A stretch of 64,000 nt of DNA. Origin: Spirochaetia bacterium. Lineage in GTDB: Bacteria; Spirochaetota; Spirochaetia; SZUA-6; Bin103. The stretch is from the NCBI GenBank assembly GCA_965198005.1, contig CBDAOI010000002.1:640001-704000 (forward strand). The letters are read 5' to 3'. Numbering within the stretch: position 1 is the first letter of the stretch; each line of letters opens with the position of its first letter. Shown here piece by piece: positions 16,266 through 64,000 of the stretch. The position numbers and the translations under genes were made by a program. Below the pieces are notes generated by a model. The model was not told where the DNA came from. It searched no databases and saw only the letters and a program-made list of their open reading frames with translations.

Positions 16266-16289
16266 GGTGTGCTGCTCCGGCGCGTCACT

Positions 16290-16497: not shown

Positions 16498-16534
16498 CCC
16501 CGCCGAGCGGCGCGCGGCACGGCAGTGAGGCTCC

Positions 16535-17686
16535 TCATCTGCGAAGGTGCCAGCGGCGGGCGCGGCGGCGGGGGCCGCGGCGGCGGCCGGGGGCGGCGGT
16601 ACGCTGCGGGAGGGGGCGGCCGCGGAGGTGACGCTGGTAGAGGCGGCAGGCGTGGTAGTAGGGCTCGGGGCTGGCGAAGCTGGCGAGCATGTCGGCGCGG
16701 TAGAGTTCCAGCAGGTCGGGGAACAGGTCGGAGCTCATCAGCTCCTCGGCGTGCTCGGGGCGCACGCGCCCGAGGGCAGCCGGGATCATGTGGTTGCGCC
16801 CGAGGAACGCCACCGCGTCGATCAGCCGCGGTGTGAAGCCGAGCCGGGTCAGGAAGCGGCGCGCCACCCGGGCACCGATCTCGGCGTGAGCGAAGAACCG
16901 CTTGTCACCCTGCGGTACCGCCTGCGGCTTGCCCACGTCGTGCAGCAGCAGGCCGAGCGACAGCAACAGATCGGGCGTCTTGCGGTGGGCGAAGGTGGCC
17001 AGCGTGTGCTCCCACACGTCGCCCTCCGGGTGGAACTCCTTGGCGTGCGGAACGTTGGCCATCGCCGCCAGCTCCGGCCACCAGCTCTCCACGATGCCGG
17101 TCTCGTACAGCAACCGCAGCCCCTTCTCCGGCGCGCGGCTGGTCAGGATCTGTTCCAGCAGGTGGCGCTGATACTCGGCCGACACCGGCGGCGCTTCCGC
17201 CTTGATCGGCGCCGAGTCGGGGGTGAAGGCGAAGTGGTAGCGGGAGGTGAGCTGCGCGGCCTCGGCGGTCACCTGCCACCATTCCAGGCCGGCAGGGCGG
17301 CGCACCAGCTCCGGTTTGCGCAGGTCGTAGTAGACCGCGTCCGGATCGAGGAACACGTCCCGACGCGGGTCGAAGCGGAGCTGCTGGACGGTAAACGGAT
17401 AGCCGGTCACCCCACCGCTGTCGCCGCAGCGCACCCACAGCCGCGTGCCGCGGTGCAGCGCCATTGCGTCGACCAGCGGACCGCCGCCGAACTGCAGTTC
17501 GTCCACCAGCGGCGCGATCTCGGCCACCGTGGCGTCAGCGACTATGTGCAGCAACCGCTCACCGTAGTACTCCGGCACCCGGAAGTAGCGATCGAGCGCC
17601 GAATAACTGACCAAGTCGGCGCTGACTCCCGCGTCGTCAAAAGGCGCGAGAACACTGGATGGACTCTCAACGCTCAGACTGGACAC
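16535..17686 (-). CDS. HD-domain protein of the CCA-adding/poly(A) polymerase C-terminal type
   Basis: [40 protein letters not shown]. Confidence 0.8.
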
Positions 17687-47302: not shown

Positions 47303-49078
47303 TTGCGACCACGACACCGGCACCGCCAACGGGTACTCACCATCCGCGCGCTCCGTCACCTGATTCCACTCCTGGGCCGCTACGCGTTGCCGCTGGCGGC
47401 GGGCTTTGCGTTCATGCTGGCCCAGAACTGGGGGTTTGCGCGCATCCCGGTGTGGATCCAGCGCCTGCTGGACGAGATCGTGGGCGCCAACCGGCTGCCG
47501 GTGGTGCGCGCCGCCGCGCTGGCCGCGGTCGGGTTCACCGTGCTGGCCGGCGGCTGCATGTTCCTGATGCGCAAGCTGATCATCGGGGTCTCGCGGCGCA
47601 TCGAGTACGATCTCCGGGATGCGCTGTTCCGGCGCCTGATCAGCCTGCAGTATGACTTCTTCCAGCGCCGCCGCACCGGCGACCTGATCTCGCGCTGCAC
47701 CAACGACCTGACCGACGTCCGCATGCTGCTCGGCCCGGCAATGATGTACATCCCGGACGCCCTGTCGCGGCTGGCGCTGTTCCTGCCGCTGCTGCTGGAG
47801 CTGCACCTGCTGATGACCATGGCGCTGCTGCTGGTGGCGGCCCTGCTGGTGGCGGTCAACCTGGTGGTGGTCCCCCGCTTCCGGCCGCTGTTCCGCACGG
47901 TGCAGGAGCAGGTGGCGGCGATCAGCGACCACGCGTGGCAGACCGTCACCGGCATCACCACGGTCAAGCTGTACGCCGCCGAGGCACAACAGACGGCGCA
48001 GTTCGCGCGGCTCAACCGCCGCTACGTGCGCGCCAACATGCGGGTGCTGCGAATTCGCGGGCTGCTGTGGCCGCTGATGGGACTGGTGTTCGGGCTGCTG
48101 CAACTGGTGACGCTGTGGCTGGGCGGGTCGGCGGTGATCCGCGGCGAGCTGAGCATCGGCGAGCTGCTGCAGTTCTCGACCATGGTGGCGTTGCTCGCGT
48201 TCCCGATCATGTCGCTGGGCTGGGTCACCTCGCTGCTGCAGCAGGGGGTGAGCGCGATGGAACGCATCGAGACCATCCTGACCGCCCGTCCGGAGGAACG
48301 CACGGGGGCGGCGCTGCCGGCCGGCGGTGTGCGCTTCGCGCTGGAAGGAGTGCGCTACCGCTACCCGGAGGCGGCGCAGGAAGCGCTGCACGGGATCGAC
48401 CTGCGGCTCGAACCGGGCGAGACGGTGGCGATCACCGGGCCGGTGGGGAGCGGCAAGAGCACGCTGCTGGCGCTGCTGACCGCGATCGTGCAGCCCGGCG
48501 CCGGGCGCGTCACGGTGGCGGGGCGGCCACTGGCCGACTTCGATCCGCTGGCGCTGCGCCGGCGGGTGGCGGTGGTGCCGCAGGAGACGTTCCTGTTCTC
48601 GATGACCGTGGCCGAGAACATCGCGATGGGAGCGGAGGACGCGGTGTCCCGGGAGCAGATTGCAGCGGCCGCGGACGCCGCCGCCCTGAGCGCGGACCTC
48701 GCCACCTTCCCGGACGGCTACGACCAACTCGTCGGCGAGCGCGGCATCACCCTCTCCGGCGGCCAGAAGCAACGCCTGGCCCTGGCCCGCGCGCTGGTCA
48801 GGGAGAGCGACCTGCTGATCCTCGACGACGCGCTCTCCAGCGTCGATTCGGCCACCGAAACCGAGATCCTGGCCGCGTTGCGGGGGCAGGCCGGGAGCCC
48901 GGCGCGCACCGTGCTGCTGGTGTCGCAGCGCACCTCGGCGCTACGGCTGGCCGACCGCATTCTGGTGCTGGACGGAGGCCGCATCGTGGAGCAGGGCAGC
49001 CACGACGAGCTGCTGCGCGCCGGCGGCCGCTACGCGCGGCAGGCGGAGCTGCAGCGGCTGGAGCAGTACCTGGCATGA
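47303..49078 (+). CDS. ABC exporter, permease + ATPase (start uncertain)
   Basis: TGDLISR.TND, GPVGSGKS, LSGGQKQR, LDDALSSVD. Confidence 0.9.
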   Translation: MRPRHRHRQRVLTIRALRHLIPLLGRYALPLAAGFAFMLAQNWGFARIPVWIQRLLDEIVGANRLPVVRAAALAAVGFTVLAGGCMFLMRKLIIGVSRRIEYDLRDALFRRLISLQYDFFQRRRTGDLISRCTNDLTDVRMLLGPAMMYIPDALSRLALFLPLLLELHLLMTMALLLVAALLVAVNLVVVPRFRPLFRTVQEQVAAISDHAWQTVTGITTVKLYAAEAQQTAQFARLNRRYVRANMRVLRIRGLLWPLMGLVFGLLQLVTLWLGGSAVIRGELSIGELLQFSTMVALLAFPIMSLGWVTSLLQQGVSAMERIETILTARPEERTGAALPAGGVRFALEGVRYRYPEAAQEALHGIDLRLEPGETVAITGPVGSGKSTLLALLTAIVQPGAGRVTVAGRPLADFDPLALRRRVAVVPQETFLFSMTVAENIAMGAEDAVSREQIAAAADAAALSADLATFPDGYDQLVGERGITLSGGQKQRLALARALVRESDLLILDDALSSVDSATETEILAALRGQAGSPARTVLLVSQRTSALRLADRILVLDGGRIVEQGSHDELLRAGGRYARQAELQRLEQYLA

Positions 49079-50868
49079 CCGAGGGGCCCCGCGACCTGCG
49101 GCTGCTGGCACGGCTGCTGCGCTACGTGCGCGCGCATCCGCTGCCGCTGGCGGCCGCGGCGCTGCTGGTGCTGGTCACCGACTTGCTGCAGGTGCTGGTG
49201 CCGTACCTGCTCAAGGTGGGCATCGACCGCGACCTGGCGGCCGGCGACCCGGCCGGCCTGGCGCGCACCTCGCTGCTGCTGGCCGCGACCCTGACCGGAC
49301 AGCTCGGCGGCCAGGTGGCGTTCGCCTACACCGTGGAGTACCTGGGCCAGCGCCTGCTCTACGACCTGCGCATGCACCTGTTCCGCAAGGTGCTCGGCCT
49401 GGGCCACGACTACTTCGACCGCACCGCGGTCGGCGCCACCCTCACCAACGTCACCAGCGACGTCGAGGCGATCCGCCAGTTCATCTCCCAGGGGCTGGTC
49501 TCCCTGCTCGGCGACTCGTTCCAGGTGCTGGTGATTCTCGGCGCCATGCTGTTGATCAACTCGCGGCTGGCGCTGGCGGCGTTCCTCACCCTGCCGTTCT
49601 TCGGCGTGGTCACCTGGCTGTTCCGCAACGCCATCCGCCACGACTACGGCGCGGTGCGCGAGGCCAACGCCGAAATCAACACCACCCTGGTCGAGGCGAT
49701 TACCGGCATGCGCGAGGTGACCCTGCTCAACTACCAGCGGCGGATCCTGGCCACCTTCACCGCCCACAACCGCCGCTACCTGGAAGCGTTCCTGCGGGTG
49801 GTCAACTCCTACTCCTATTACTTCCCCGCCCTGGAGCTGCTCGCCACGCTCAGCCTGATCATCATCCTCGGCTACGCCCACCGCGCGCTGGGGACCGCGG
49901 TGCAGCCGGGCGAGATCTTCGCCTTCTTCGCCTACATCATGATGCTGTACCGGCCGTTGCGGCAGTTGGCCGAACGGTTCAACACGTTTCAGGCCACCCT
50001 GGCCGCGGCCAGCCGCATTTTCCGCCTGCTCGACCGCGCCGAGTCGATCACCGAGCCTGAACGTCCGCGGCTGCCGGCGGGGGCCGGGCGCGGCGACGGC
50101 CGCGGAACGCCGGCGGCGGCGGTGGCGTTGCATGACGTGCGGTTCGGCTACGACGCGGCCCACCCGGTGCTGGAGGGCCTGTCGTTCGCGGTCGAGCCGG
50201 GCGAACGGGTGGCGCTGGTAGGCAGCACCGGAGCCGGCAAGAGCACCGTGATCAACCTCGTCAACCGGCTGTATGACGTGCAGCACGGGCGGGTGCTGGT
50301 GGACGGCACCGACGTGCGCCGCCTGCCCCTGGCCTACCTGCGCCGGCGGATCGCCACCGTGCCGCAGGACCTGTTCCTGTTCAGCGGCTCGATCGCCGAC
50401 AACATCTCGCTGGGCGCGCCCCGCGTGACCCGCGCCCAGGTGGAGGCGGCGGCCGACGCGGTGGGCGCGACCCGGTTCATCCGCGCCCTGCCGCGCGGCT
50501 TCGACCACGACGTGCTGGAGGAGGGCAAGTCGCTCTCCTCGGGCCAGAAACAGTTGCTCGCCTTCGCCCGCGCCTTCCTGCTCGACCCCGGCGTGGTGAT
50601 CATGGACGAAGCCACCGCCAGCGTCGACGCCGAATCGGAACGGGTCATCGAGACCGCGCTCGACACCCTGCTGCACGGCCGCACCGCGATCATCATCGCC
50701 CACCGCCTGTCCACGATCCGCTCGGCGCAACGCATCCTGGTGCTCCACCACGGCCGCCTGGTGGAGGCCGGCACCCACGCCCACCTCCTGGCCCACGACG
50801 GCGTCTACGCCCGCCTCTACCGCGTGCAGCTCCTGTCCCTGGCGCCGGACGCCACCGCCGCCGGGTAG
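49075..50868 (+). CDS. ABC exporter, permease + ATPase (heterodimer partner)
   Basis: GSTGAGKS, LSSGQKQL, MDEATASVD, IAHRLST; ATGA overlap with the upstream gene. Confidence 0.92.
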   Translation: MTEGPRDLRLLARLLRYVRAHPLPLAAAALLVLVTDLLQVLVPYLLKVGIDRDLAAGDPAGLARTSLLLAATLTGQLGGQVAFAYTVEYLGQRLLYDLRMHLFRKVLGLGHDYFDRTAVGATLTNVTSDVEAIRQFISQGLVSLLGDSFQVLVILGAMLLINSRLALAAFLTLPFFGVVTWLFRNAIRHDYGAVREANAEINTTLVEAITGMREVTLLNYQRRILATFTAHNRRYLEAFLRVVNSYSYYFPALELLATLSLIIILGYAHRALGTAVQPGEIFAFFAYIMMLYRPLRQLAERFNTFQATLAAASRIFRLLDRAESITEPERPRLPAGAGRGDGRGTPAAAVALHDVRFGYDAAHPVLEGLSFAVEPGERVALVGSTGAGKSTVINLVNRLYDVQHGRVLVDGTDVRRLPLAYLRRRIATVPQDLFLFSGSIADNISLGAPRVTRAQVEAAADAVGATRFIRALPRGFDHDVLEEGKSLSSGQKQLLAFARAFLLDPGVVIMDEATASVDAESERVIETALDTLLHGRTAIIIAHRLSTIRSAQRILVLHHGRLVEAGTHAHLLAHDGVYARLYRVQLLSLAPDATAAG

Positions 50869-50908: not shown

Positions 50909-51961
50909 TTACTTATAGGTCGAGCAGGCTGGACACGTGACAGCCTCCCCCGGATTACTTGCCGCGCGATGATAGTCTATGGCATCAAGACAACCGCTAT
51001 TGATCAAACCACTGACCTGATTCTCGAATGCTGCTCGATCAACAGCGTACATACCACCCCGTGCGCCTTCAAAACTGCAATTCCAGGCCGCAAGTGCTTG
51101 TCCATAGAGCAGAGCCGCGTGCACGCCGCGGGCACCGACCCGGCGTAGCCCCCTCTGCCCGCCGACAGACGTCTTAGCAATCAATCCTGCTGTGCACCAG
51201 TCGCCCGAGCCACAGGGATCGGCGACCCGTGGCACCCGAAAAGGCTTCTGATGCATCCACTTGGACACCCGGGCTCCCCGCCCCAGCCGATGGCGATACT
51301 TCAGACCTCGTTCTCCAAGCGTATGCACCTCAAGCAGTGGCCCAGACGCACTGTCGATCGAGCCCCAGATGTCAACCGGACGTCCGTGCGCATACTTCAC
51401 GACGTGGGCGAGTGAAATCGCCTCTGCCACTAACCTTCCATCTGCCCGTCCGGATGGTTCAAACACTACCACAGCCCCGTGAGACGACGCCTCGGCAGCC
51501 AGAGCAAGGATCGCACGCGACGGCCGATCAAAAAAAAACACTGACGCATCTGAGACTTCCGGCTTGACTCTCTCTGCCGAAGAAACCGTGATAGGCTTAA
51601 AACTCGGCAGCCTCTTACCGCACTGCGGGCACGACCAAGAAAAACGATGCCGTGGACGGCTGTCTCCCTCAAGTACTATTTCATGAACTACCATGGGCGT
51701 GTCACTGGTCGGAGCGCAGCTAGTCCAATCCAGGTGAACTCCCCAGCGCCCCATATCCCTACGAATCCGCTCCGAACCAGCGTCGCCCCTCATCCGCGCG
51801 ACCGGGTAAGCATCCCATCCAAGCCACGACAGAATGCACAATACATTCCCACAAGTTCCACCCGTCCAACAGCCAATGGGTACATCCGGCTGCCAACTAA
51901 TGACCACATCAAGGGCTATTAACCCTGTCCCATAAACTTTCGGGTGAGTAACTGAATTCAT
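50909..51961 (-). CDS. PfkB/ribokinase-family kinase with Cys motifs
   Basis: G.GLIALD, GGTCGNV, TLGERG, DPCGSGD anion-hole motif; CPQC insert and terminal CPAC. Confidence 0.85.
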   Translation of the reverse strand: MNSVTHPKVYGTGLIALDVVISWQPDVPIGCWTGGTCGNVLCILSWLGWDAYPVARMRGDAGSERIRRDMGRWGVHLDWTSCAPTSDTPMVVHEIVLEGDSRPRHRFSWSCPQCGKRLPSFKPITVSSAERVKPEVSDASVFFFDRPSRAILALAAEASSHGAVVVFEPSGRADGRLVAEAISLAHVVKYAHGRPVDIWGSIDSASGPLLEVHTLGERGLKYRHRLGRGARVSKWMHQKPFRVPRVADPCGSGDWCTAGLIAKTSVGGQRGLRRVGARGVHAALLYGQALAAWNCSFEGARGGMYAVDRAAFENQVSGLINSGCLDAIDYHRAASNPGEAVTCPACSTYK

Positions 51962-53049
51962 ATTGTCGGGCGGCCCTCCGGATACACTTCGCCCTCCAAC
52001 CATAAATGTACGATACTTGGCTGAACAACTGTGTCCAGTACACTTTCCATCATGTCGTAGCCAATTGACTCAAGATAAGCCACGGGCAAGTCGCGCTCCA
52101 ACGCCGCCAGAAGAGCGCCAAGTGCCATCACTTTGCTGCCATGCGGGGAGAGAACGAGCATCGAACCTCCGGTCTCCGAGAATACCGCGTTCCGAAGGTC
52201 ATCTAGTCTAAGAAGAGTCCGATAGAGGTCCAACGGATCTCCCTCGTCGGCGTACACGATGTTGCGCGCATCGACCGACCATGTGTTCTCGAAGTCGGCC
52301 AGATATTCCTCCGCCAGCCTGTCGCCGAAACGAGGGTCTGTGGCTGGAAACGGAAGTATGGGGCACGTATCGTGAGGGTCAACGAAATCGTAGAGGCGCG
52401 TGAGTGCTCCCCGCATCCCAAAAGCCAGCTGTGGGAGCCACAACCGTGCCGCACCGCTGGCTTCAGAGAGAGTCGAGCGCCCCTTGAAACCATGAACGTA
52501 GGCCGGTACGTCGCCGGGGACTGGGCGTATCTTGTCATCAAGGAGTGGATCGTGAACAACGACTACATGTAGATTGGTCTGTCGTCCGTGCCGACCGATA
52601 AGCTCGACGAAGTAGCGAATTATGGGGAATATGGTGCCTGCGGACAACGCACTAATATCGACTACAATATCAGTTACACCATTCAGACTCTGTTGACGAA
52701 GGACGTTTATTATGTTCCGTCCTCCGACCACGGCACCGTCCTGCCCAAAGATGTCGATCGATGCGACTTGGGAGTCGGGGAGCACATTGAGAATGACGCT
52801 GGTGTTCTCGTTCGCCCGGTTGGATTGCCCCCGCGGCGGATTGGGGCGGTCCTCTCGGATCAACAGTGCACGTACATTGATCGTCTCATTGGCGAGCCGT
52901 TCAGCGACAATACATGATCGAGGATCGAACCCCGCGCCTGCGACAAGAAAGGCTAGGCGGTGGGGCTGGGCAAAGTAACGCGCGAGGAACCGATCGACGT
53001 CGTCCCCACTGTGGGCGACACAGGGATCCCAGTGGGATCGGTAGTCCAC
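51958..53049 (-). CDS. Hypothetical protein (363 aa)
   Basis: Intact ORF coupled on both sides; GAGFDPR, VVDISAL, CPILPFP, LSPHGSK..ALG. Confidence 0.7.
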   Translation of the reverse strand: MDYRSHWDPCVAHSGDDVDRFLARYFAQPHRLAFLVAGAGFDPRSCIVAERLANETINVRALLIREDRPNPPRGQSNRANENTSVILNVLPDSQVASIDIFGQDGAVVGGRNIINVLRQQSLNGVTDIVVDISALSAGTIFPIIRYFVELIGRHGRQTNLHVVVVHDPLLDDKIRPVPGDVPAYVHGFKGRSTLSEASGAARLWLPQLAFGMRGALTRLYDFVDPHDTCPILPFPATDPRFGDRLAEEYLADFENTWSVDARNIVYADEGDPLDLYRTLLRLDDLRNAVFSETGGSMLVLSPHGSKVMALGALLAALERDLPVAYLESIGYDMMESVLDTVVQPSIVHLWLEGEVYPEGRPTI

Positions 53050-53050
53050 T

Positions 53051-54952
53051 TCAGTCCTCGTCCATCAGGTTGATCAGATCATGGCTACGTCGCTCAAGGA
53101 AGCCGCCGCGCTTTAGCGTCAGTCCATGGTGAAGACGTAGTACACCGCCCAGCTCGATGAGGCACCATAGCCGTTTTTTTGTGCTGTGATTTGGGACCAT
53201 CACGAATGCGTTATAGGCGATACCAAACTGAAGCACCTGTGCTAGGTGTGGAAGATCTTGAGGAATGGTGTTGAACTCATCTTGTGGGATACCGAAGGCA
53301 GTAGCACCGCCGCGGAGTGACGCATTACCCTCTAGGCTTTTCGCGACGCATTCGGCGGCCATGCCGTCGGCTATCCGGCGGACAAATCGACATTGGGGGA
53401 AGCTCCACTCATCCACCATCTGTGTCGCACGTTCCCGGAGTAGCTTGTGTTGTAGACCGCTTGGGAGCGTGGCGTTCTTTCCGCGGATGAGCTGAGTCTC
53501 TGCCTGTGAGACGAGACGAGCGCAGAGCTGCAAGAACTGCTCAGCATTCTCCGAACTCGCGTCGCTCAAGGTGTCGATACCGAAAAAATACGGAAGTTCG
53601 TACTTATGCAACAAGTGGATGCGTGCTCCGTCGGCGACGCCAGAATCGACCTTCAGAGGTCGACTAAGCTCCAACATCTCTTCGTCGTCCACGAACAGAC
53701 TAGGTTGCACGCGATTAGCGTGACGCTCAAAAAGCACCGAAAGAATACCTAGCCTGAGGGCTTCGGAGCTCTCCCCGGTATTCGCGAGGTAATCGTCAAT
53801 CATTTTCTCAAAGCTGACACGACGCTCGTGTGGAACTCGGCGCTGACGCTGCAGGACATCGACTTCTTTTGTTAGTTGCTGGCGCTTACCGGTGGGGAGC
53901 TCCGCCGCCATGGTCGGCAGCAGATCACCGAGGCTGTTGAGACGACGGCGGTTGAACACCTCCATCTGACTCAGGTATCGCCCAGCCATATCTTTGGCCA
54001 TCGTACGAAACGCTCGCCGCTGTTTCGTACGATTTTCACCGCCCTGCATCCAGATGACCGTCATTTCTCGTGAGCGCTTGAGTGCGGACTCCTCGGAATC
54101 AGTAGTCTGACCCAGAAGCACGTCCCTTGGCGTAAGCGCATCGAGCCGCGTTAGTACCCATCTTGAGACCTTGAGGTCGCGCTGTGAAAGCCAACGCCAA
54201 AGCGCTAAGAGCTGACTGGGATGTAGACTATGTGCGTCGTCAAAGATGATTAGCGGACGGAGGTCCAGGGTATCCTGACGATATTTGATCCGGAATGCCT
54301 CAATGACGTCGAACGGTCGGTAAGCGGCGCTTGCCTCACGGTCGATACTCTCAACACCCGGCGGCAGGAGAGCAGCCGATATGCGATAGATTGCGCGCTC
54401 GACGATTCGGGCGCGCTCGCGCAAACCCGGTCCCTCTGTGCCCCCAATCTCGGTGAGTGCCGCGTCGGCATCGGAGCGCGGAATAATCTCGACTTGGTCA
54501 AGCGGCACTCCCGCCGCTTCGACGTTCCGAAGCCAAGCGAGTACGGAACGCGCCTGGAGAAGTTCGATCATCAGTCCTGTCTTGAGTTCATCAGTGTAAT
54601 CGAACTCCCAAAAATCCCGGTATTCAGCCTGGAGTGGGAGGCGAGCACCGATAAGAGTTGGCCGCTCCTCCTTAATCGCTCCGCAGTTCGTGAGTGTGTC
54701 AATTAACGGCCTATAGTTGGTCATCCCCCGATTACCTAACAATGTGCTCAGCGCTGTAAACTCGAAGAGTCGCGCCAACGTCGTCTTCCCGCTACCCGGG
54801 GTGCCGACAATCACTGCTAGTCGATCGTAGAGTCTCTCTTCTTTGGCCGGCTTCTGGAAAAACCTCGCGACTGGTTCTGGAGTGACCAAGGCGAGAAATG
54901 CCTCATCGTCCCGGAGGTATTCAGTCGCTCTTTTTTCAAACGGATTTGCCAT
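53051..54952 (-). CDS. P-loop ATPase (ORC/CDC6-like or STAND-related)
   Basis: MANPF, Walker A GTPGSGKTT, Walker B LIIFDDAH. Confidence 0.8.
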   Translation of the reverse strand: MANPFEKRATEYLRDDEAFLALVTPEPVARFFQKPAKEERLYDRLAVIVGTPGSGKTTLARLFEFTALSTLLGNRGMTNYRPLIDTLTNCGAIKEERPTLIGARLPLQAEYRDFWEFDYTDELKTGLMIELLQARSVLAWLRNVEAAGVPLDQVEIIPRSDADAALTEIGGTEGPGLRERARIVERAIYRISAALLPPGVESIDREASAAYRPFDVIEAFRIKYRQDTLDLRPLIIFDDAHSLHPSQLLALWRWLSQRDLKVSRWVLTRLDALTPRDVLLGQTTDSEESALKRSREMTVIWMQGGENRTKQRRAFRTMAKDMAGRYLSQMEVFNRRRLNSLGDLLPTMAAELPTGKRQQLTKEVDVLQRQRRVPHERRVSFEKMIDDYLANTGESSEALRLGILSVLFERHANRVQPSLFVDDEEMLELSRPLKVDSGVADGARIHLLHKYELPYFFGIDTLSDASSENAEQFLQLCARLVSQAETQLIRGKNATLPSGLQHKLLRERATQMVDEWSFPQCRFVRRIADGMAAECVAKSLEGNASLRGGATAFGIPQDEFNTIPQDLPHLAQVLQFGIAYNAFVMVPNHSTKKRLWCLIELGGVLRLHHGLTLKRGGFLERRSHDLINLMDED

Positions 54953-54964
54953 ATAACATGTCCC

Positions 54965-55929
54965 CTAAAGGTGTCGCTGGCGACGACGAAAGAGCGGGCG
55001 CATTCCTGGTGCTTGAATGTTGCCTCGAACCCCACCATCGCTCTCGGCCCAAAGCAGAGCAATCGCGTTGTTAGGCGTGTTGTGTGCGAGCACAAGAGGG
55101 AGCGCGCAGCCACCATAGCCAAGGCCTAGATGACTCACGCCGCCGATTTCGGTATGTTTCGTCTGGATTATCGGGTCGTAGTAGATCTGCGTGAGTCTTA
55201 TGAAGTCGTCATGCACGCCGGAACCAGCTCGAATCGGAAGTTCAGGCGGAAGCACCATGCCGAAGGAAGTCCGGGGAGTCTTCCTCCAGCTATCGGGGAA
55301 CGCGTCGCTCGCCTCTTTGAGACGCTCGCTGATTGCTCCTGCGGCTTCCGACGATGCTACATAGTGGTGCACGCAAAGCACCCAGTTATCCTCGAATAGC
55401 TGATCATCCGGAAGCGTGGCATTGGCGATTTCCACTTCACCTGAGTGACTTGAACGAATTGTTCGTTGGTAAGTAAGCCCGCATTCGCGTGGCGAATCGT
55501 GTCTATACGTGCTCCGTCGCTCAATCCCATGAATAGCGTCTGGCGGCGCAATCGCTCGGTGGCCGCGTGGGCGGCCGAGTCGGCGAGCACTCGATAAGGC
55601 TGAATGCCGTATTCGGCTGCGACAAGGCGTACTATATGTTCTCGGACAATGCGCGGATAGAACTGCTCCACGAGCCGCTGCATCTCTATCTGGCCGATGT
55701 AGACGAGGGAGCGACGCACGAAGGTGTAAGCGGTATCCCGCTCGTGTGCCTCGAACTGCTGGAGCCACGTGACCAAATTCTCAATAAAGCGCATACCAGC
55801 CTGGAAGGCTTGGTAGCCATCGTATTTTAGACGCGCCATCAGCTTCAGCCAAGCGAACTCTTGACGGGCTTGATAATCAGTCCAATTCATGATCTGGCCG
55901 AGGACTTTCAGACCAAGGTCCTGATTCAT
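54965..55929 (-). pseudogene. PRTase-like protein, frame-broken by a probable internal deletion at ~55430
   Basis: N-part (WLQQF..ER..AY, LFMGLSDGARID) and C-part (GYGGCALPLVLAHNTPNN..LLW..PLFRR) are in different frames; span is 965 bp; no hhhDD..SG loop remains. Confidence 0.65.
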
Positions 55930-57869
55930 TCGAGTGATCCAGCCCCAAACCTCAGCCGGCCGTCTTGTACTTCTAGTGCCGAGAGATACTCGAACGTGAC
56001 GACCGGACCGCGCTGACCTGGCTGCCCCAGATGCCAACAGGTTGCGGGGTCGGTGCTGATTTCATCAACTCCGAGTGCAAACGGTTCGCTGAGCAACTCA
56101 TGGTCGTTGCCCGGCCAACGGCCGCGATCGCCGATCACGAGGATAGGCTCGTCGCCAACCGTCTCGCGTAGCCGTCTAACGACGTTCATCTTGGACACGC
56201 CGGGCGCAACGATATCCACCGAATGGCTGGAGCGGGTGACGGCGACTCCCTGGATGCCGGTTGTCCGGATCACTTGATGGGCGAGATCCCAAAGTCGACA
56301 CTCGCGCATGATCCTTGTGGCCTCAAGCGTGATTTGTAAGGGGCGCTCTTCCTGGCAGACGAATTCAGCAAGCTCTGGCTGATGGCGCAATGCGTGTGCA
56401 AGTGGCCGAAGGCAATCGTGGGCTCTCTCGGTTCCATCCGGCGAGTCGTTGTTATCGAGCGACGCGACTTCAGCGCCGTTGTAGTATCCAACGAGAATGA
56501 GAGGCCAGAGCGGGCGAGCAAGGCGCTCCTGAAGGTCGCGTCGGACCGATGCGCCGCGGCCAGTTGCGATCCCAATATACGCACCGGCGCTGGCTAGGCG
56601 AGCGAGTTCGGAGGCCATTTCCGGATCCACGGGTTCGGAGCGACGCCGGGTATCGACCACCGTTCCATCGTAGTCGAGAACGACTCCGGCGAATCGAGCG
56701 TCCCGCAAACGGGCAAGGAACGCGGTGAGCGCATCGTGCCAGCGGCCGATCTCCGTTAGCGTGGCTACGTTACTTTGATCGACGTTTGCTTTCCGCGCGA
56801 TCGCTGCGGACACACGTGGCGTAAGACGCGACGACCCGGTAGCGCACTTGGAGCGTGGGAGACTCAAGTTATAGAGTCTACGTCCGAACTCGGGGACGCC
56901 GGGACGTCCGGGGTCGATCCCCCGGATGCATCCAACCCATCCCGTGATCCTCAACGCTGCGAGCAGCGATGCAAGTGCTACTGCACTCGGCCCACCCTGG
57001 AAAACGATCCGTGCTTGGGGGACGCCGATGGGAATCAGGTCAAGCGTCCGCTCGGCGAGCACGCGATCCGCACTTGTGACGAAGGCGAGCACAGCGCTCG
57101 TGCCGCTGCGCTTGGCGAGCCAATGATGTCGTCCGTGGGCGAAGTTCCGGTAGTCGGCAAGCTGAACGTGGCCCAGCGCGGCCTCCGTAAACTTCGACTC
57201 GAGATCGATCGCTCCAATCCGCGTTGCAGGGCCATGAAGGACGAGTGTGGTGGGCCGCGTCCAGAGCGGAGCTGTGGTCGCTTCCCACGCTTCCAGGTCA
57301 GCGGTGGCATCCCGAAGCAGCGGCTTCAGTTGGTCCACCGTGTCCCGCCAACCCTTATGTGAACCGAACTCGGCAGCGTAGGCTCGGGTCAGAAGCGAGG
57401 TGAAGCCGAATAGCGAATTGGTGGCGAGGAAGCCGTCCTTGCCGGCGGGTGGTGGGTAGAGGAGCAGGTCGACGAATGCGTGCTGTCGGCAGAGGTTGAC
57501 CAAAGGACTGACCTCACGCCCGCATAGGACGGCGATCTGGCGCGGCTCACGTAGGATCAACGTCTCTGCCGCCGCCATGATGTCGTTGTTGCTCCCTCTA
57601 GCGCTTAGCAGCCATGTGGCGATGGTCGCATCGAGTGGCTCGTCAGTTGCGTCGAGCGGCGTGGCCACCGTGGATAGGAGGCCCGTGTAGCGCTGATGCA
57701 GACCGGCTAGCGCATGGGCACCGGTGAGTGATCCCCCGGAACCGATTACTCGAAGCGGCGAACGACCGGCGACACGAACGGCTTGTTGCATAGGCCGGAG
57801 GTCGGCTTCCTCTGCCCAAGCGAACGTCTCGGCCAGCATCGCCATCTCTCCCGTATATGGCCGTGCCAT
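55926..57869 (-). CDS. SIS (sugar isomerase-like) + HAD phosphatase fusion
   Basis: IGSGGS, LLSARG, ESKFTEAAL..DYRNFAHGRH (SIS); VLDYDGT, IATGRG, VSK, IGD....GND (HAD motifs I-IV). Confidence 0.8.
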   Translation of the reverse strand: MARPYTGEMAMLAETFAWAEEADLRPMQQAVRVAGRSPLRVIGSGGSLTGAHALAGLHQRYTGLLSTVATPLDATDEPLDATIATWLLSARGSNNDIMAAAETLILREPRQIAVLCGREVSPLVNLCRQHAFVDLLLYPPPAGKDGFLATNSLFGFTSLLTRAYAAEFGSHKGWRDTVDQLKPLLRDATADLEAWEATTAPLWTRPTTLVLHGPATRIGAIDLESKFTEAALGHVQLADYRNFAHGRHHWLAKRSGTSAVLAFVTSADRVLAERTLDLIPIGVPQARIVFQGGPSAVALASLLAALRITGWVGCIRGIDPGRPGVPEFGRRLYNLSLPRSKCATGSSRLTPRVSAAIARKANVDQSNVATLTEIGRWHDALTAFLARLRDARFAGVVLDYDGTVVDTRRRSEPVDPEMASELARLASAGAYIGIATGRGASVRRDLQERLARPLWPLILVGYYNGAEVASLDNNDSPDGTERAHDCLRPLAHALRHQPELAEFVCQEERPLQITLEATRIMRECRLWDLAHQVIRTTGIQGVAVTRSSHSVDIVAPGVSKMNVVRRLRETVGDEPILVIGDRGRWPGNDHELLSEPFALGVDEISTDPATCWHLGQPGQRGPVVTFEYLSALEVQDGRLRFGAGSLE

Positions 57870-57984
57870 GGTCGCCTAACTGCCCTCCCAGGCTGTCCTC
57901 GTCCAGTGACGCACAAGATGGACACAGGATGGTGGAGTCTCGTCGCTCTTGCAAGGACAGGGAAACCGGACCTGCCTGGAGCAA

Positions 57985-58413
57985 ATCTCGCTGCGCGCGC
58001 CGGGCGTGACCCGCGCCCAGGTGGAGGCGGCGGCCGACGCGGTGGGCGCGACCCGGTTCATCCGCGCCCTGCCGCGCGGCTTCGACCACGACGTGCTGGA
58101 GGAGGGCAAGTCGCTCTCCTCGGGCCAGAAACAGTTGCTGGCCTTCGCCCGCGCCTTCCTGCTCGACCCCGGCGTGGTGATCATGGACGAGGCCACCGCC
58201 AGCGTCGACGCCGAATCGGAGCGGGTCATCGAGACCGCGCTCGACACTCTGCTGCACGGCCGCACCGCGATCATCATCGCCCACCGCCTGTCCACGATCC
58301 GCTCGGCGCAACGCGTCCCGGTGCTCCACCACGGCCGCCTGACCCCACGGCCGCTACGGTGCTGGAGGCCGGCACCCACGCCCACCTCCTGGCCCACGAC
58401 GGCGTCTACGCCC
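57985..58413 (+). repeat. Degenerate duplicate of the 3' end of the ABC gene (copy of ~50404-50812)
   Basis: Near-identical DNA (ISL..TRAQVEAAADAVG...HDGVYA) with a few substitutions and a ~20-bp insertion near 58341. Confidence 0.92.
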
Positions 58414-58641: not shown

Positions 58642-60831
58642 TCACGTCCGATCGTGGGGTGGTTCTACGCGCACGTCGGGCAGCCATGCCAGCCACGACG
58701 GCAGGTACCAGTTCCCGCGGCCCAGGATCTCCATGGTGGCCGGCACCAGGATCGAGCGCACCAGCGTCGCATCGAGCAGCACCGCGACGGCGAGCCCGAA
58801 TCCCACTTGCTGGTTGATGATGGTCTTCCCTGACGCGAAGGCGCCGAACACTGCGACCATGATCAGAGCAGCCCCCGTGATCAACCCGGCGGTGGAGCGC
58901 AGCCCATACGCTACCGCGTCCGCATTGTTCCCGGTCTGATCGTAGCGCTCGCGGATCCGGCTCAGCAGGAAAACATGGTAGTCCATGGAAAGACCGAAGA
59001 CGATGGCGAACAGGAACAGCGGGATCCACACGTCGATCACTGCGGCGTGTTGAAATCCCAGAAGGTCCGTCGCCATCCCCTTCTGAAATACCAGCACCAT
59101 CAGGCCGTAGGCGGTCCCAATGGACAGCAGGTTCATGAACACCGCCTTTATCGGGACCACGATTGACCGAAAGACAAGCAGCAATACCGCGAAACCGAGA
59201 CCGAGCACGAACGCGAATACGATCGGCGTGTACCTTTCCACTACGGCAAAAAGATCCGCGGTAACCGCGGTTTCCCCGCCAACGAATACTTCCGCCGAGA
59301 CGCCCTCGAATGCCGCCGGAATGTATTGCTCGCGCAGCACTGAAACCGCCTCGACGGTAGTGTGACTTCGCGGCTCTCCGGGAAGCGGGAGGGTCATCAA
59401 GGCCAGATCCCCGGAAGGGCCGTGTACGATGACCGGAGGTATGGGAAACCTGGCATCCTCGGTCAACGAGCTCGCCAGGCGTGCGATCGCCGCCTGCACC
59501 TGCGGACTGCCGAGGTCTCCCTCGATGACAATCTCGGCAGGATTGACCAGACCGAAAGAGAACTTCTCCTCCAGAACGAAGAAGGCTTCCTTGGTTCGAG
59601 CCCCGTCGGGGAACGTGTCCAACCCATTGATCCCCGTCTCTATTTGAAAGTAGAACAGCGTGCAGGCGACCATCGGACCGCCGATCGCGAGGATGCTGAC
59701 GATCGGGAACTTCGTTACGAGTCGCGTGGTTTTGCCCCAGAAACCGTCGGCCGCACCGTAGCCGCCAGCGTCGCTTCGTCTTCGGACGAAAGGGATCCTC
59801 AAGCGATCGATAGCCGGTCCCAGCAAGGCAAGCGCAGCAGGCAGCAGTGTCAGGGTGGCCCCGAGTGCGACCATGACGACCACAATGGCGCCGATGCCAA
59901 GCGACCGGAAGAACGTCGCCGGCACGATCAACATCCCGCACAGAGAGACGACCGTGGTGACACCGCTGAACAGCACCGTCCGACCCGCCGTTTCGCCAGC
60001 TCGGATCACCGCCTCGAGCTTGCCCAGGCCGCGGCTCAGCTCCTCTCGGAATCGCGATACCATGAGGAGCGAATAGTCGATCCCTACCGCCATACCGATC
60101 ATGCTCACCATCATCGTCACGAAGAACACCAACTGAAATGCCTGACCGATCAGCGCGACCATTCCCAACGCGACGATGATCGCCACGATTGCAAGCCCGA
60201 TCGGTAGCAGCGCGGCCACGATACTGCCGAAGAGCACGAGCAGAATGATCAGCGCCACGGGAAGGCCGAACCGCTCGCCCTGCTCCAGGTCATGTCTGCT
60301 CAGCTCGTTGGTCTCGAAGGCGATGCTGGCAGCTCCACCCATCAGCACGCGGAAATCATCTTCCTCGTCCGCCTTGGCGACGAGGTCCACGACCCTCGCG
60401 ACGTTCGCCGTAGCCTCATCGAAGTCGCCGGCCATGACCACCTGCACTATGGTGGTCTTGCGGTCGCGTGACACGAGAGTTTCGTCATTCGTCTGATAGT
60501 AATTCCGACCAGCGGCCACAACGCCACTTCCGAGCGAGAGGATCTCGGCGGAGATGGACTCGACCTTCTGTCGAAGCTCCGGGGCATCGACCGTGAGCGT
60601 GTCCGACTGTATCACGACCAGTTCGAGCATCGGTTTGCGCCCTCGAAGCTTTTCCTCCAGGAGTCGGGAAGCCACCGCGGACTCGGCATTCCCGGATAGC
60701 GTCAATTCCGTGGTGGTGGCGCCTGTAAGCATGGTCCGGATGAGAATCGCCGCAATCGCCACGAGCGCTATCCAAACGCCTATTGTGGCCCACGGCCGGC
60801 GCACACTGACTCGAGCCAAGAAAGCGGGCAT
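58642..60831 (-). CDS. MMPL-family transporter
   Basis: AVGIDYSL..SRFREE, AGRTVLFSG, FGLSMDYHVFLLSRIRE, LDATLVR..LVPA. Confidence 0.93.
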   Translation of the reverse strand: MPAFLARVSVRRPWATIGVWIALVAIAAILIRTMLTGATTTELTLSGNAESAVASRLLEEKLRGRKPMLELVVIQSDTLTVDAPELRQKVESISAEILSLGSGVVAAGRNYYQTNDETLVSRDRKTTIVQVVMAGDFDEATANVARVVDLVAKADEEDDFRVLMGGAASIAFETNELSRHDLEQGERFGLPVALIILLVLFGSIVAALLPIGLAIVAIIVALGMVALIGQAFQLVFFVTMMVSMIGMAVGIDYSLLMVSRFREELSRGLGKLEAVIRAGETAGRTVLFSGVTTVVSLCGMLIVPATFFRSLGIGAIVVVMVALGATLTLLPAALALLGPAIDRLRIPFVRRRSDAGGYGAADGFWGKTTRLVTKFPIVSILAIGGPMVACTLFYFQIETGINGLDTFPDGARTKEAFFVLEEKFSFGLVNPAEIVIEGDLGSPQVQAAIARLASSLTEDARFPIPPVIVHGPSGDLALMTLPLPGEPRSHTTVEAVSVLREQYIPAAFEGVSAEVFVGGETAVTADLFAVVERYTPIVFAFVLGLGFAVLLLVFRSIVVPIKAVFMNLLSIGTAYGLMVLVFQKGMATDLLGFQHAAVIDVWIPLFLFAIVFGLSMDYHVFLLSRIRERYDQTGNNADAVAYGLRSTAGLITGAALIMVAVFGAFASGKTIINQQVGFGLAVAVLLDATLVRSILVPATMEILGRGNWYLPSWLAWLPDVRVEPPHDRT

Positions 60832-60865
60832 GGCTAAGCTCCTCCGGTGTGAAGTGTCTGATCGC

Positions 60866-62041
60866 CTACCACTTGCCGGACTCCTCTGCGTAAGCATGAT
60901 GCGGCATCGTGTAGTTGATCCCTTCCTGATCGAACGCCGAAACCTGGAGCAGTCCCATGAAGTCGGTCAGGTTGGTGTGTACTGCGAGCTTGGGAAACCA
61001 CTTGGCCATTACTCGGTGATAGCGAGTCTGCACGCGAAACCAAGGGAGAACTCCGAAGGTGAACGCCGGTGGATACCGAAGCTGGTCGGCAAGCGACTTG
61101 CCTATCAGCGAGCGAGAAATGAGGTACACGTACTTCGCCAGCCGTTTGCGGTCCCCCGGCTCCGTGTTGCCTACGAATATGGGGGCGGAGTTGACCAGAG
61201 AGTGGGATATGGCAATCGACTCCAGGTCGGCAGGGGGCTCGCACGCGATGCCGACTTCGAACAGCTTCAGGGCATCGGCTTCCCCTCTGAACAGCATGCT
61301 CTCGGGAATGCCCATCAGGAAACCGGCGTAACGCCAGACCTGCATGAAGCTGCTGCGTTCGCGGTCATCGAACACGCCGCCGAGCGACTTCAAGTGCTTG
61401 AGCAGGCGCGCCGAAAACGCAGTTAATGCGAAGCCCAGGTGCGCCGCGCTGATCGGCACACCCCAGGCTTCGGTATCCCAGTCGACGGCGTCCCGCAGCA
61501 GCATCCTGACCTGCGCGTGGATCAGACGAATGCGGACCGACAGCTTCCATCCATCGCCGAACCGTTCAAGTCCACCGGGAAGAAATATCTCCATCATGTG
61601 CCGGTTGTTCTGCTGCAGACGGCGGAGACCCTGGCTGCGCAATCGGCCGGTTATGAAGAACGACTTGCTGATGTTCGTGGTGAAGCCTTCGACCAGCGCG
61701 CCGCCGACCATTCCGGCCAGCACGAACCTCGAGTTTCGGTGAAACATGCGGATGCCGGGCATGAACTCCGCTTGATCCACCCAAGCAGGAGGAACCTCGA
61801 CCGCTTTGAAGAAATCTCTGACAATGGACGGAGCACCGCGGAGCGCGGGATCGTCCGGATCGTTCATCGCCGTACGCACGAGCCGTGCCGATTCTTCCGG
61901 CTGACGTGAGGCGAGGCTTGCCACCAACTCGTCCGCGGCGGGATCTCCGACGAGCGTGTGCGCGACGTAGTTCGATGCCATCTGAGCATCGATAGCGCAT
62001 GCGTTCTCGTAACCCGAGATGTAATCAGACGGCATGGCCAT
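60866..62041 (-). CDS. MpaB/Lcp-like (DUF2236) heme oxygenase-family protein
   Basis: GDP.AD, P.WVD, RIRLIHAQVR, W....WGVPIS, WRYAGFLMGI. Confidence 0.8.
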   Translation of the reverse strand: MAMPSDYISGYENACAIDAQMASNYVAHTLVGDPAADELVASLASRQPEESARLVRTAMNDPDDPALRGAPSIVRDFFKAVEVPPAWVDQAEFMPGIRMFHRNSRFVLAGMVGGALVEGFTTNISKSFFITGRLRSQGLRRLQQNNRHMMEIFLPGGLERFGDGWKLSVRIRLIHAQVRMLLRDAVDWDTEAWGVPISAAHLGFALTAFSARLLKHLKSLGGVFDDRERSSFMQVWRYAGFLMGIPESMLFRGEADALKLFEVGIACEPPADLESIAISHSLVNSAPIFVGNTEPGDRKRLAKYVYLISRSLIGKSLADQLRYPPAFTFGVLPWFRVQTRYHRVMAKWFPKLAVHTNLTDFMGLLQVSAFDQEGINYTMPHHAYAEESGKW

Positions 62042-64000
62042 CGCTGGTCACCTCCTCGGCGCTAGTTTCGCCTGGACGCAGACAACACGCGTTCCGGCTT
62101 CCGGGGCGCCTGCGAATCTTTCGCGTGAGCGATCGGAAGAGCATCCTCAGTGCCGGGTCCGAGCCGGCCAGTGCGCTGCCGGCGATCATGGTCGCGCGCA
62201 CACTGCGGCGGGTGATCTTTACTTGGCTCGCCTCGGCAAAGTCCGGTTGGGCGTAGATGCGGCGGAGACTGAGCACGGCCATACCCAGCGCCCAGAGGCA
62301 GAATCGGCGGATGCCGGTCTCGCGGGCCGGAATGAGAAGGGTGAATCGCAACGCGTCCTCCAGATGCCGGGAGGCGACCGCCACCAGATCGAGCATCCCC
62401 GCGGCGAATCTGGGATCCGAGCGTCCGCTGGGCAACGATCGAAGTTCGAACCCGGTCGAGCGAAAGATGTCCTGCGGCAGCCAGCAAGACCCGACAAGAC
62501 GATCGGTCCACACGTCCTTGAGGATGTTGGTCATCTGCAATCCTTGGCCGAACGCGACCGACAGCCGGAACAGATCGTCTCGACGCTGGTTGATTTCGTC
62601 GGAGTAGTCACAGAACAGCTCGGTGAGGGTCTCTCCCACGACCCCGGCGACGTAATAGCAGTAGCGATCGAGGTGCGCCTGGTCGGCCAAGCCGCCGAGT
62701 GTCGCCATGTGCTGAAACTCCGCCATGCCGTGCGCCATGATGGACACGCAACGTTCCACGGCGTTGCGCTGAACCGGACGGAGCTGGTGCGTGATGCGGA
62801 CGATCCGGGGCGTATTGGCAACCAGATCCCGTTCGCTTGGCAGGGTTGCGGACGACAGCAGAGGATGAAGCTCGCGCGCGAACGACTCTGGCTCTTGGTG
62901 GCCGGTCACCACGCGGACCAGGCGGGACAGGAACTCCTGCTTCTGCGGCGCGGAAAGCTCCGGCTCGTCTTCGACCGTGTCCGCGATTCGACACAGGAGG
63001 TAGGTATTGCAGACGACCTGGCGTAGCTGCTCGGGTAGCTGGGGAATGGTCAGTGCGAAGGTCCGCGAGACACCCGGCAGGATTCCTGTCTGATAGGCGA
63101 TATCGTCGCTCGCCCGTTCTCGTAACGCTGCCGCTGCCGTTATTGCATTCCGCGTCGGCCGGTGGCAGGCGGGAAACGCCGAGTCGGCGTGCTTGAGTTC
63201 CGCCACTTGGTGCCGGAAGGACGCCGATTGGAGCACGGGCGCCTGCCGTAGTGCGGCCAACGAGGTTGCACCGCACAGCGTCATGGCGGTCCTCAGCTCA
63301 TGCTCGACCCGGTGGATCAGGGCCAGTGCGCCGTCGCTGCCGTCGGCCATGACGGCGCGGATGAAGGGAAGGGCCATGGCGCCGCAGGCCGCGCCCATCG
63401 CCACCGCCTTGGCCAGGTGCACCCCGTGACGCAGTCCGCCGGAAGCGATCACGCTGCCGGCCACGTCTCGGAGAAGCGCCAGCAGCACCCCGGTAGGCAG
63501 GCCCCACCCCGCAAACGTCTCGGCGCTCGCCTGGCGGCTCTCCGGCAGCCGCCGGCCCTCCACCGTTACCCAATTGGTGCCGTCGGCGCCGGCCAGATCT
63601 ACGTACTGTACGCCGCAGCCGAGCAGGGATCGCACCAGCCCCGGCCGAATCCCGAATCCGGTCTCCTTGACGATCACCGGCAGCCCGCACTCTCCGGTGA
63701 CGCGCTCGATGGCGCCCAACAGGCCACAGAAGTCACGGTCGCCGTCTGGCTGGAACAGCTCCTGACCGGCGTTGAGATGCACCACCAACGCCTGCACCTC
63801 CAGACGCTGCAGCACCCGGCGCACGGTGTGGACGTGCAGGTCGCGGAGTTGCACCGCCCCGAGGTTGGCCAGCACCGGCACGTCCGGCGCCAGCGGCTTG
63901 ACGTGGAAGTCCCCGAAGGTGGCCTCGTCCTGCAGCAGTGGGCGGATCGACCCCAGCCCTACGGCAACGCCCGCCCGCTGCGCGGCTGCGGCCAGCGCCC
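62025..64000 (-). CDS. fni: Type-2 IPP isomerase fused to a squalene/phytoene synthase (5'-truncated by window edge)
   Basis: GLGS.R, ANLGAVQ, HLN..QE, VKETGFG, IASGGLR (IDI-2), continuing in frame into VSRTF, YLLCRIADTVED, YCYYVAGVVG, GLQMTNILKD. Confidence 0.85.
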   Translation of the reverse strand, partial: ALAAAAQRAGVAVGLGSIRPLLQDEATFGDFHVKPLAPDVPVLANLGAVQLRDLHVHTVRRVLQRLEVQALVVHLNAGQELFQPDGDRDFCGLLGAIERVTGECGLPVIVKETGFGIRPGLVRSLLGCGVQYVDLAGADGTNWVTVEGRRLPESRQASAETFAGWGLPTGVLLALLRDVAGSVIASGGLRHGVHLAKAVAMGAACGAMALPFIRAVMADGSDGALALIHRVEHELRTAMTLCGATSLAALRQAPVLQSASFRHQVAELKHADSAFPACHRPTRNAITAAAALRERASDDIAYQTGILPGVSRTFALTIPQLPEQLRQVVCNTYLLCRIADTVEDEPELSAPQKQEFLSRLVRVVTGHQEPESFARELHPLLSSATLPSERDLVANTPRIVRITHQLRPVQRNAVERCVSIMAHGMAEFQHMATLGGLADQAHLDRYCYYVAGVVGETLTELFCDYSDEINQRRDDLFRLSVAFGQGLQMTNILKDVWTDRLVGSCWLPQDIFRSTGFELRSLPSGRSDPRFAAGMLDLVAVASRHLEDALRFTLLIPARETGIRRFCLWALGMAVLSLRRIYAQPDFAEASQVKITRRSVRATMIAGSALAGSDPALRMLFRSLTRKIRRRPGSRNACCLRPGETSAEEVTSDGHAV

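Follow-up and report, generated by a model that had tools for sequence, protein, structure and literature searches.

Results

Organization of the locus

We analyzed a 64,000-nt stretch of the Spirochaetia bacterium assembly GCA_965198005.1 (contig CBDAOI010000002.1, positions 640,001 to 704,000, forward strand), hereafter referred to as the window, in which five co-oriented and tightly packed open reading frames (ORFs) occupy positions 50909–57869 of the minus strand. The first gene, g1 (57869–55926), encodes a 647-aa SIS-HAD protein, and g2 (55929–54965) is a pseudogene of the phosphoribosyltransferase family PRTase-CE that is split over two frames. They are followed on the same strand by g3 (54952–53051), coding for a 633-aa ORC-CDC6-like P-loop ATPase, by g4 (53049–51958), coding for a 363-aa stand-alone tandem CARF protein without an effector domain, and by g5 (52003 or 51961 to 50909), coding for a PfkB-family kinase of 350–364 aa. 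The start of g2 at 55929 forms an ATGA overlap with the stop of g1, gaps of 12 nt and 1 nt separate the g2 stop from the g3 start and the g3 stop from the g4 start, respectively, and the ATG of g5 at 51961 forms a further ATGA overlap with the stop of g4. The latter start is more likely than 52003; the residues preceding the 51961 ATG are not conserved in homologs. An original prediction, made from the sequence alone, had described five co-oriented, closely spaced genes; coordinates, overlaps, and gaps were checked on the ORFs, and this arrangement is real.

The cassette is convergent to an ABC exporter gene ending at 50868, the second of an exporter pair (47303–49075 and 49075–50868), and thus lies antisense behind an ABC gene, as had been noted. 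Its GC content amounts to 0.55–0.58 across 51–56 kb and to 0.62–0.64 across g1, versus 0.69–0.73 on the ABC side and 0.66 for the genome (four contigs), in agreement with the earlier description of the cassette as AT-richer than its host. Promoter and terminator scans gave no signal exceeding that of shuffled controls.

The PRTase gene and the loss of its active site

The 3′ part of g2 scored 31.8 bits against the Pfam family PRTase-CE (PF24390, cut-off 27) and matched the PADLOC PRTase_III-A retron models (E 4.1e-6), while the 5′ part reached only 11.8 bits with PF24390. Among the 70 related loci holding both halves, g2 is a single ORF of approximately 370–382 aa in 66 and is split in the four others. 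The 27 intact homologs aligned all contain the phosphoribosyl pyrophosphate (PRPP) loop VYLIDDFxGTGTS, in which D194, D195, and G200 are kept in at least 90% of the rows, and a conserved HNTPNN motif preceded by G-x14. The pattern Gx14PNNxP is a hallmark of retron PRTase effectors, as stated in the available part of a report (PMC12746101). The g2 homologs conserve G-x14-PNN, with mostly V or I at the last position and P in two (L076 and L080). Intact g2 proteins comprise an N-terminal helical domain, the PRTase core, and a basic tail. A structural model of the homolog from locus L001 (pLDDT 84.5) retrieved HGPRT and UPRT first at Z 8.3 with VIA, and the top 13 rows were PRTases or PRTase-fold proteins (Z 8.3–7.2, a range in which a common arrangement can also fall); with Foldseek, E values were 0.015 or worse. 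Family models and alignments thus bear out the PRTase-like assignment of the original prediction, with a middling fold match of the model.

In the window, the 5′ part of g2 lies in one frame (55929–55436) and the 3′ part in another (55435–54965). DNA and protein alignments to intact homologs revealed a deletion of approximately 175 nt with its junction at 55436/55435, which takes out the PRPP loop and causes a frameshift. The g2 gene of the window is therefore a pseudogene and this copy of the cassette a disarmed relic, which cannot work in the proposed way because its PRTase has no PRPP loop. Contigs from two sequencing runs of different studies span the junction without a gap, so that the deletion is not an assembly slip: run contig X1 covers 54900–55860 with one difference and X5 covers 54900–55504 with seven, and one of the two runs may be the window's own source. 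No second PRTase-CE was found in the window's genome (G000). A 255-nt metatranscriptome contig matches g2 exactly at 55451–55705; it hints weakly at continued transcription of the broken gene, or else represents carried-over DNA, and does not demonstrate transcription.

The ORC-CDC6-like ATPase and the tandem CARF protein

The predicted large P-loop ATPase, g3, belongs to the ORC-CDC6-like family (PF24389), against which it scored 39.6 bits (cut-off 27). In 27 sequences, P52, G53, G55, K56, and T57 of the Walker A motif GTPGSGKT and a Walker-B-like D238-D239 pair are invariant. A sequence-profile search of solved structures found no relative of g3, and such searches likewise gave no useful match for the CARF protein g4 or the PRTase g2.

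The product of g4, listed as unknown in the original prediction, contains two CARF domains at approximately 30–170 and 200–330. Residues 9–358 matched positions 2–344 of the 345 of the PADLOC CARF6 model (PDLC01916) with E 2.8e-126. The AlphaFold2 model of g4 (pLDDT 87.3) gave Can1 (6sce_A) as top match in VIA-align, with Z 15.0 and a root mean square deviation of 3.1 over 231 residues from both domains, and the next 21 rows were all CARF proteins. CARF-like loops are conserved at D131-x-S133-A134-x-S136-x-G138 and S301-P302-x-G304-S305-K306. By its modeled fold, g4 is a stand-alone tandem CARF protein, a predicted nucleotide sensor with pseudo-dimeric build. The Foldseek matches of the model, namely tandem USP-like domains and C-terminal domains of cation-chloride cotransporters with a TM score of approximately 0.25, were superseded by the CARF matches of the all-against-all VIA comparison.

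With Can1, a tandem-CARF nuclease activated by cyclic tetra-adenylate, g4 shares the two CARF domains in one polypeptide, and after Can1 it matches Csm6, Can2, Card1, Cam1, and Csx1; it differs from these CARF ancillary proteins of type III CRISPR systems in having no nuclease or other effector domain fused. Cas10 (TIGR02577 and TIGR02578) scored over the cut-off in one of five cassette-bearing genomes, and not in that of the window, which is 90% complete. The cassette is thus not tied to type III CRISPR, and since four of the five genomes lack Cas10, the CARF ligand is probably not a cyclic oligoadenylate made by Cas10.

The SIS-HAD fusion and the PfkB kinase

In g1, a double-SIS domain of the GlmS/FrlB type (residues ~1–330), resembling phosphosugar isomerases and deglycases, is fused to a HAD-IIB phosphatase domain of the Cof/trehalose-phosphatase type (residues ~390–647). 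The Pfam models Trehalose_PPase (37.8 bits, cut-off 27) and Hydrolase_3 (32.6 bits, cut-off 20.9) matched over residues 396–600; the score with the NCBIfam HAD-IIB model was under its cut-off. A profile of 28 homologs matched HAD-IIB structures and, with E 1e-4 to 4e-3, the double-SIS structures 7kqa, 8eol, 3hba, and 2aml, the NagB-II/GlmS-like matches spanning residues 20–250. Both folds named in the original prediction were thereby recovered. Invariant in the 28 sequences are S44-G45-G46, E229, and H245 of the SIS part and D399, D401, G402, and T403 (motif DYDGT), K560, D581, and D589 of the HAD part.

E229 and H245 are separated by 16 residues, and a Glu/His pair at this distance is common to GlmS and to the deglycases FrlB and FraB, which cut sugar-amine bonds, according to the available parts of two reports (PMC10285752; PMC12359202). 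While g1 shares the double-SIS build with GlmS, FrlB, and FraB, it differs by its fusion to a HAD phosphatase and by a second phosphate loop of the type SAGGxN instead of SQSGxT. FrlB and FraB work together with a sugar kinase, and a PfkB-family kinase is encoded in the same operon here as well. The kinases of Frl and Fra pathways are themselves members of the PfkB family.

As a single sequence, g5 scored 21.1 bits with Pfam PfkB, which is under the cut-off of 25.8; a profile of 27 homologs matched ketohexokinase (E 1.1e-12) as well as PH1459, fructokinases, and ribokinases. A GG switch (G48-G49-T50-x-G52-N53) and the catalytic motif DxxGxGD (D262-x-x-G265-x-G267-D268) are invariant, so that the PfkB call holds. 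A split CxxC...CxxC pair, with C125, C128, and C357 invariant and C360 conserved in at least 90%, suggests a zinc site.

Conservation of the cassette and its variants

A search with one genome per species yielded 80 loci with a CARF6 relative, which derived from Alpha-, Beta-, and Gammaproteobacteria, Acidobacteriota, Planctomycetota, Chloroflexota, Actinomycetota, Rhodothermales, Binatia, Poribacteria, and Entotheonella. All five genes are present in 66 of them, and 63 of these 66 have the window's gene order within 7.5 kb; the co-occurrence of the homologs as a unit, on which the original prediction depended, is thus evident. The cassette is conserved across at least nine phylum-level groups. 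Most of the 14 incomplete loci stop at a contig edge; five (L014, L021, L049, L055, and L064) look truly truncated. Median gaps between successive genes are −4, 10, 1, and −38 nt. Sequence identities to the window are correlated among the five genes across loci (r 0.87–0.96), which indicates co-inheritance and no more than that, because related genomes are not independent.

The three exceptions in gene order comprise two Vicinamibacterales loci (L016 and L028), in which approximately 3 kb of extra DNA, probably insertion elements, lie between PRTase and ATPase genes or within the ATPase gene, and L067, in which the order is PRTase, ATPase, CARF, SIS-HAD, PfkB. This order B is also found on Paenarthrobacter pTC2 (L100) and on the Sinorhizobium meliloti plasmid pRRI128_5 (L102). 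The latter carries a NADAR gene beside the cassette and, directly after the five genes, a second PRTase-ATPase-CARF triad without sugar enzymes (12996–17042), which is preceded by a helix-turn-helix gene and whose PRTase match is frame-shifted over two frames. A third arrangement, type C, consists of NADAR, SIS-HAD, PRTase, ATPase, and CARF genes without PfkB, with the NADAR gene directly upstream of the SIS-HAD gene; it occurs on Burkholderia gladioli bgla_2p and Rhizobium lentis p2 (L103 and L104), and its products are 23–32% identical to the window proteins. SIS-HAD thus accompanies the triad through rearrangement and deep divergence, and PfkB and NADAR are the variable members.

Searches of plasmids by tblastn with an intact PRTase gave matches only within the same cassette family. 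At L008 (6940–9996, Candidatus Entotheonella), PRTase and ATPase lie in one open frame with a truncated PRTase match, which may reflect a fusion or else a frame error in sequencing; this single locus was given no weight. An apparent CARF-PfkB fusion in L068 and L069 was an artifact of tblastn matching through a stop codon and was gone after corrected ORF calling.

Genomic surroundings and mobility

Of 72,556 plasmid records, 19 carry the cassette, and nine of these plasmids are conjugative; 50,697 phage records yielded no copy. Annotated plasmid settings include TniQ/TniB with a transposase in Agrobacterium, a SIR2 gene in Rathayibacter, and a position inside a type IV secretion system (T4SS) cluster in Sulfitobacter. 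Neighbors were tallied as the largest ORF within 3 kb on each side; 117 of the 123 ORFs picked were used, and six were dropped as near-duplicates or as lying inside a rearranged cassette. Mobile-element neighbors comprised phage integrase, T4SS coupling protein, TrwC, TrbI, and Mutator, IS66, and Tn3 transposases or resolvases, and defense neighbors comprised type I and IIG restriction-modification, Gabija, Wadjet, BREX, AriA (PARIS), PifA, Hma, DrmMI (DISARM), and AbiL. Each family was represented by one to three members, housekeeping genes occurred among the neighbors as well, and NADAR was found in two of the 58 downstream neighbors.

The flanks are not conserved, the commonest flank cluster being found in nine of 65 loci; the cassette has no conserved sixth or seventh member there, and no transporter or regulator is conserved alongside the cassette in these loci as would be expected of an Amadori operon of the Frl/Fra type. 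The original prediction had noted the missing transporter and regulator, and had named sugar-catabolic neighborhoods as a setting that would speak against it; no such neighborhood was seen, and mobile-element and defense genes were found nearby instead. Public records annotate the three core genes as 'hypothetical protein' and the end genes as 'HAD hydrolase', 'sucrose-6-phosphate hydrolase', 'PfkB carbohydrate kinase', or 'fructokinase'.

Arrival in the host genome

The CARF6 profile was found in one of 92 genomes of the order, that of the window, which is also the only one among the 34 genomes with a completeness of 90% or more and a contamination of 5% or less. Together with a cassette GC content of 0.56 versus 0.66–0.72, this single occurrence identifies the cassette as horizontally acquired. 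It is framed by direct repeats on the plus strand. The left copy (50402–50812) belongs to the ABC exporter gene 49075–50868 as its native 3′ end, and the right copy (57965–58413) is a promoterless fragment of the same 3′ end. The repeat comprises the 410 bp of the ABC gene that precede its final 56 bp; over the first 300 bases the copies are 98% identical, the right copy carries a 20-nt insertion, and 115 of 122 residues encoded by it are identical to the ABC C-terminus (BLASTP). The left copy is considered native because three genomes of the same genus, none of which has the cassette, keep the ABC gene through that tail (89–91% identity including the tail). Between the repeat copies lie only the five genes and approximately 95 bp on each side, with no integrase or transposase. 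This layout suggests that the cassette entered by recombination, using a copy of the target 3′ end that it carried, or that a duplication occurred on insertion.

Downstream synteny is disturbed: in the relative G003, the region after the ABC gene corresponds to another contig (C4) of the window's genome, and the stretch 61824–64357, which continues to approximately 65240 on its own contig, has a 99.8% copy on C4 (334804–332271) beside that G003-like region. A rearrangement would account for this, as would an assembly join at a repeat.

Upstream of the cassette, a gene for an MMPL transporter and one for an MpaB/Lcp-type oxygenase occupy 58645–62041 on the minus strand, with a GC content of approximately 0.60–0.61 versus 0.66 for the genome; they do not occur beside the cassette elsewhere and may be a separate acquisition. 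A single ORF at 62028–63881 (minus strand) combines a part resembling FMN-dependent dehydrogenases (residues 140–214) with a squalene/phytoene synthase part (269–559) and is a possible isoprenoid fusion enzyme as judged from these similarities.

Relation to known systems

The families of the core triad are already catalogued as PF24390 and PF24389 in Pfam and as CARF6 (PDLC01916) in PADLOC, so that the triad is not an unrecognized one. The three core genes match these models and are adjacent and co-inherited; here, the SIS-HAD and PfkB genes join them. No publication describing the five-gene form was found in the literature library searched, although the neighborhood may already have been drawn in a published figure. 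The text of Kaur et al. 2020 does not contain 'PRTase', and neither a 2026 preprint on ParA nor the CoCoNuT preprint covers the cassette.

Type III-A retrons such as Retron-Eco11 have a PRTase-like effector with PRPP loop and G-x14-PNN, as in intact g2, which also matches the PRTase_III-A models. Upon activation of Retron-Eco11, PRPP falls by approximately 50%, and the available part of the report describes this fall without naming an acceptor product (PMC12746101). The cassette differs in that Pfam identifies no reverse transcriptase among the five products (a noncoding RNA was not searched for), in the partners of the PRTase, which are an ATPase and a CARF protein, and in the N-terminal helical domain beside the PRTase core of the g2 homolog, where these retrons have a winged helix-turn-helix at the C-terminus.

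NADARs reverse the ADP-ribosylation of guanine and act as antitoxins of DarT, as described in the available part of a further report (PMC11125620). As in DarT-NADAR pairs, a NADAR gene is present in the type C variant, where it heads the operon; the cassette differs from them in that it has no DarT, that the donor would be PRPP and not NAD, and that NADAR is absent from the form found in the window. An earlier suggested likeness to Ter-type stress operons was not sustained, as no match to a Ter family turned up among the five products and no neighbor is conserved.

Discussion

A candidate conflict system

We consider it probable, though by no means settled, that the cassette is a horizontally acquired conflict (immune-type) system in which a PRTase gated by the ATPase and the CARF protein spends PRPP or transfers its phosphoribosyl group. 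The mechanism that we infer starts from the families, folds, and motifs of the proteins, the unit-like conservation, the mobility, the single occurrence in the order, and the loss of the PRTase loop. The ATPase would recognize an invader (DNA or protein) and, jointly with the CARF protein and its ligand state, would license the PRTase to spend PRPP by moving the 5-phosphoribosyl group onto an acceptor. This use of PRPP would starve nucleotide synthesis or mark the target, so that the infected cell or the invader would stall. SIS-HAD and PfkB may then process or remove the ribose-phosphate product as a reset or antidote, and in the sister variant, in which NADAR is present and PfkB absent, NADAR may take part in the handling of this product. 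That kinase and phosphatase form opposing arms, as originally proposed, is a conjecture.

The intact copies keep the catalytic motifs of g1, g2, and g5 and the Walker motifs of g3. Decay of the effector, seen in the window, in four of the 70 other loci, and in the second triad of the Sinorhizobium plasmid, fits a costly or toxic enzyme. With g4 recognized as a CARF protein, the logic shifts from 'ATPase-gated' to gating by an ATPase plus a nucleotide sensor, in which the CARF protein would add a nucleotide input. The earlier interpretation is thus retained in part, namely in its folds, co-occurrence, and genomic context, and given up as regards an unrecognized core triad, the gating logic, and a working copy in the window.

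Several points weigh against a conflict system of this kind. To our knowledge, sugar-phosphate enzymes are unusual in defense systems. The defense context is qualitative, and many neighbors are housekeeping or unannotated genes. The best PF24389 stretch of g3 is limited to residues 3–75; the hidden Markov model similarity of g2 to retron PRTases is limited to approximately 40–50 C-terminal residues, and its fold match is middling (Z 8.3, within the range possible for a common arrangement). No experiment on the cassette was found in the literature, and the copy in the window is broken.

Alternative explanations

The transferred phosphoribosyl group could have a more specific destination: guided by a DNA-binding ORC-like ATPase, the PRTase might phosphoribosylate an amine on a nucleobase in DNA, in RNA, or in free nucleotides, in analogy to ADP-ribosylation by DarT, and the adduct would be removed by NADAR in type C or by a route via PfkB and SIS-HAD. 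We regard this chemistry as unlikely. PRTase-CE would be a PRPP-dependent counterpart of DarT that is steered by the ATPase and gated by the CARF protein, and SIS-HAD with PfkB or NADAR would constitute a 'deglycation' route, an extension that is doubtful as well. The base-modification version has some footing, because NADARs cleave ribosyl-base bonds and the SIS domain is of the deglycase type: NADAR genes stand next to SIS-HAD in type C, beside the cassette in L102, and among the downstream neighbors tallied above, the Glu/His spacing of g1 is that of GlmS and of the sugar-amine deglycases FrlB and FraB, and the PRPP consumed upon Retron-Eco11 activation has no named acceptor product in the source available. 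Nevertheless, NADAR occurs in a minority of the loci only, and there is no evidence for any acceptor. Free bases are the normal acceptors of type I PRTases, open-chain phosphosugars are the substrates of SIS enzymes, and we know of no deglycase of a ribosyl adduct. The same enzymes might instead build a product, and under this account, to which we give a similarly low probability, the sugar-phosphate enzymes and the PRTase would make a nucleoside-like or sugar-phosphate signal or antimetabolite that is sensed by the CARF protein, with the ATPase controlling or executing the response. A home-made ligand is attractive because the CARF sensor comes without a known cyclase and Cas10 is lacking in four of five genomes; the catalytic motifs of all four enzymes are intact in the 27–28 homologs aligned, and the originally suggested likeness to Ter-type operons, with their PRTase and HAD enzymes, points in this direction as well. 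Isomerase, PfkB kinase, and HAD phosphatase are, moreover, the classes of GmhA, HldA, and GmhB in ADP-heptose synthesis; however, the SIS domain of g1 is of the double GlmS type and not of the GmhA type, and the HAD domain of GmhB is of class IIIA whereas that of g1 is of class IIB. In addition, PfkB is dispensable in the type C variant, and no product can be named.

That the cassette is merely a mobile salvage or catabolic operon for a sugar, a nucleoside, or an Amadori compound, comparable to Frl or Fra, is in our view highly improbable. The combination of PfkB and double-SIS enzymes does resemble the kinase and deglycase steps in the use of fructose-lysine and fructose-asparagine in the available parts of the reports on these pathways (PMC10285752; PMC12359202), and the public names of the end genes point to carbohydrate metabolism. 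Yet the products of three of the five genes belong to the CARF, ORC-CDC6-like ATPase, and retron-type PRTase families, and the cassette travels without the transporter or regulator of a Frl/Fra-type operon. Its distribution is patchy, with one of 92 genomes in the order, and its neighbors are mobile-element and defense genes.

Implications

If the cassette is the conflict system that we favor, it would be an immune system with a CARF sensor outside CRISPR, in which a phosphoribosyltransferase replaces the nuclease and which supplies sugar-phosphate chemistry of its own through an isomerase of the deglycase type, a phosphatase, and a kinase; no description of such chemistry in a bacterial defense system was found. 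It would also name a ligand source for non-CRISPR CARF proteins and an acceptor for retron-type PRTases. Were the DarT-like chemistry to hold, the cassette would represent a novel modification of nucleic acid that serves immunity and comes with a repair pathway of its own. Because the five genes are conserved across at least nine phylum-level groups, these ideas can be tested directly on an intact homolog. To this family the window adds an island without a mobility gene that is framed by a 410-bp repeat of the 3′ end of its target gene, and a case in which the effector is the part that decays, here by a clean deletion of the active site.

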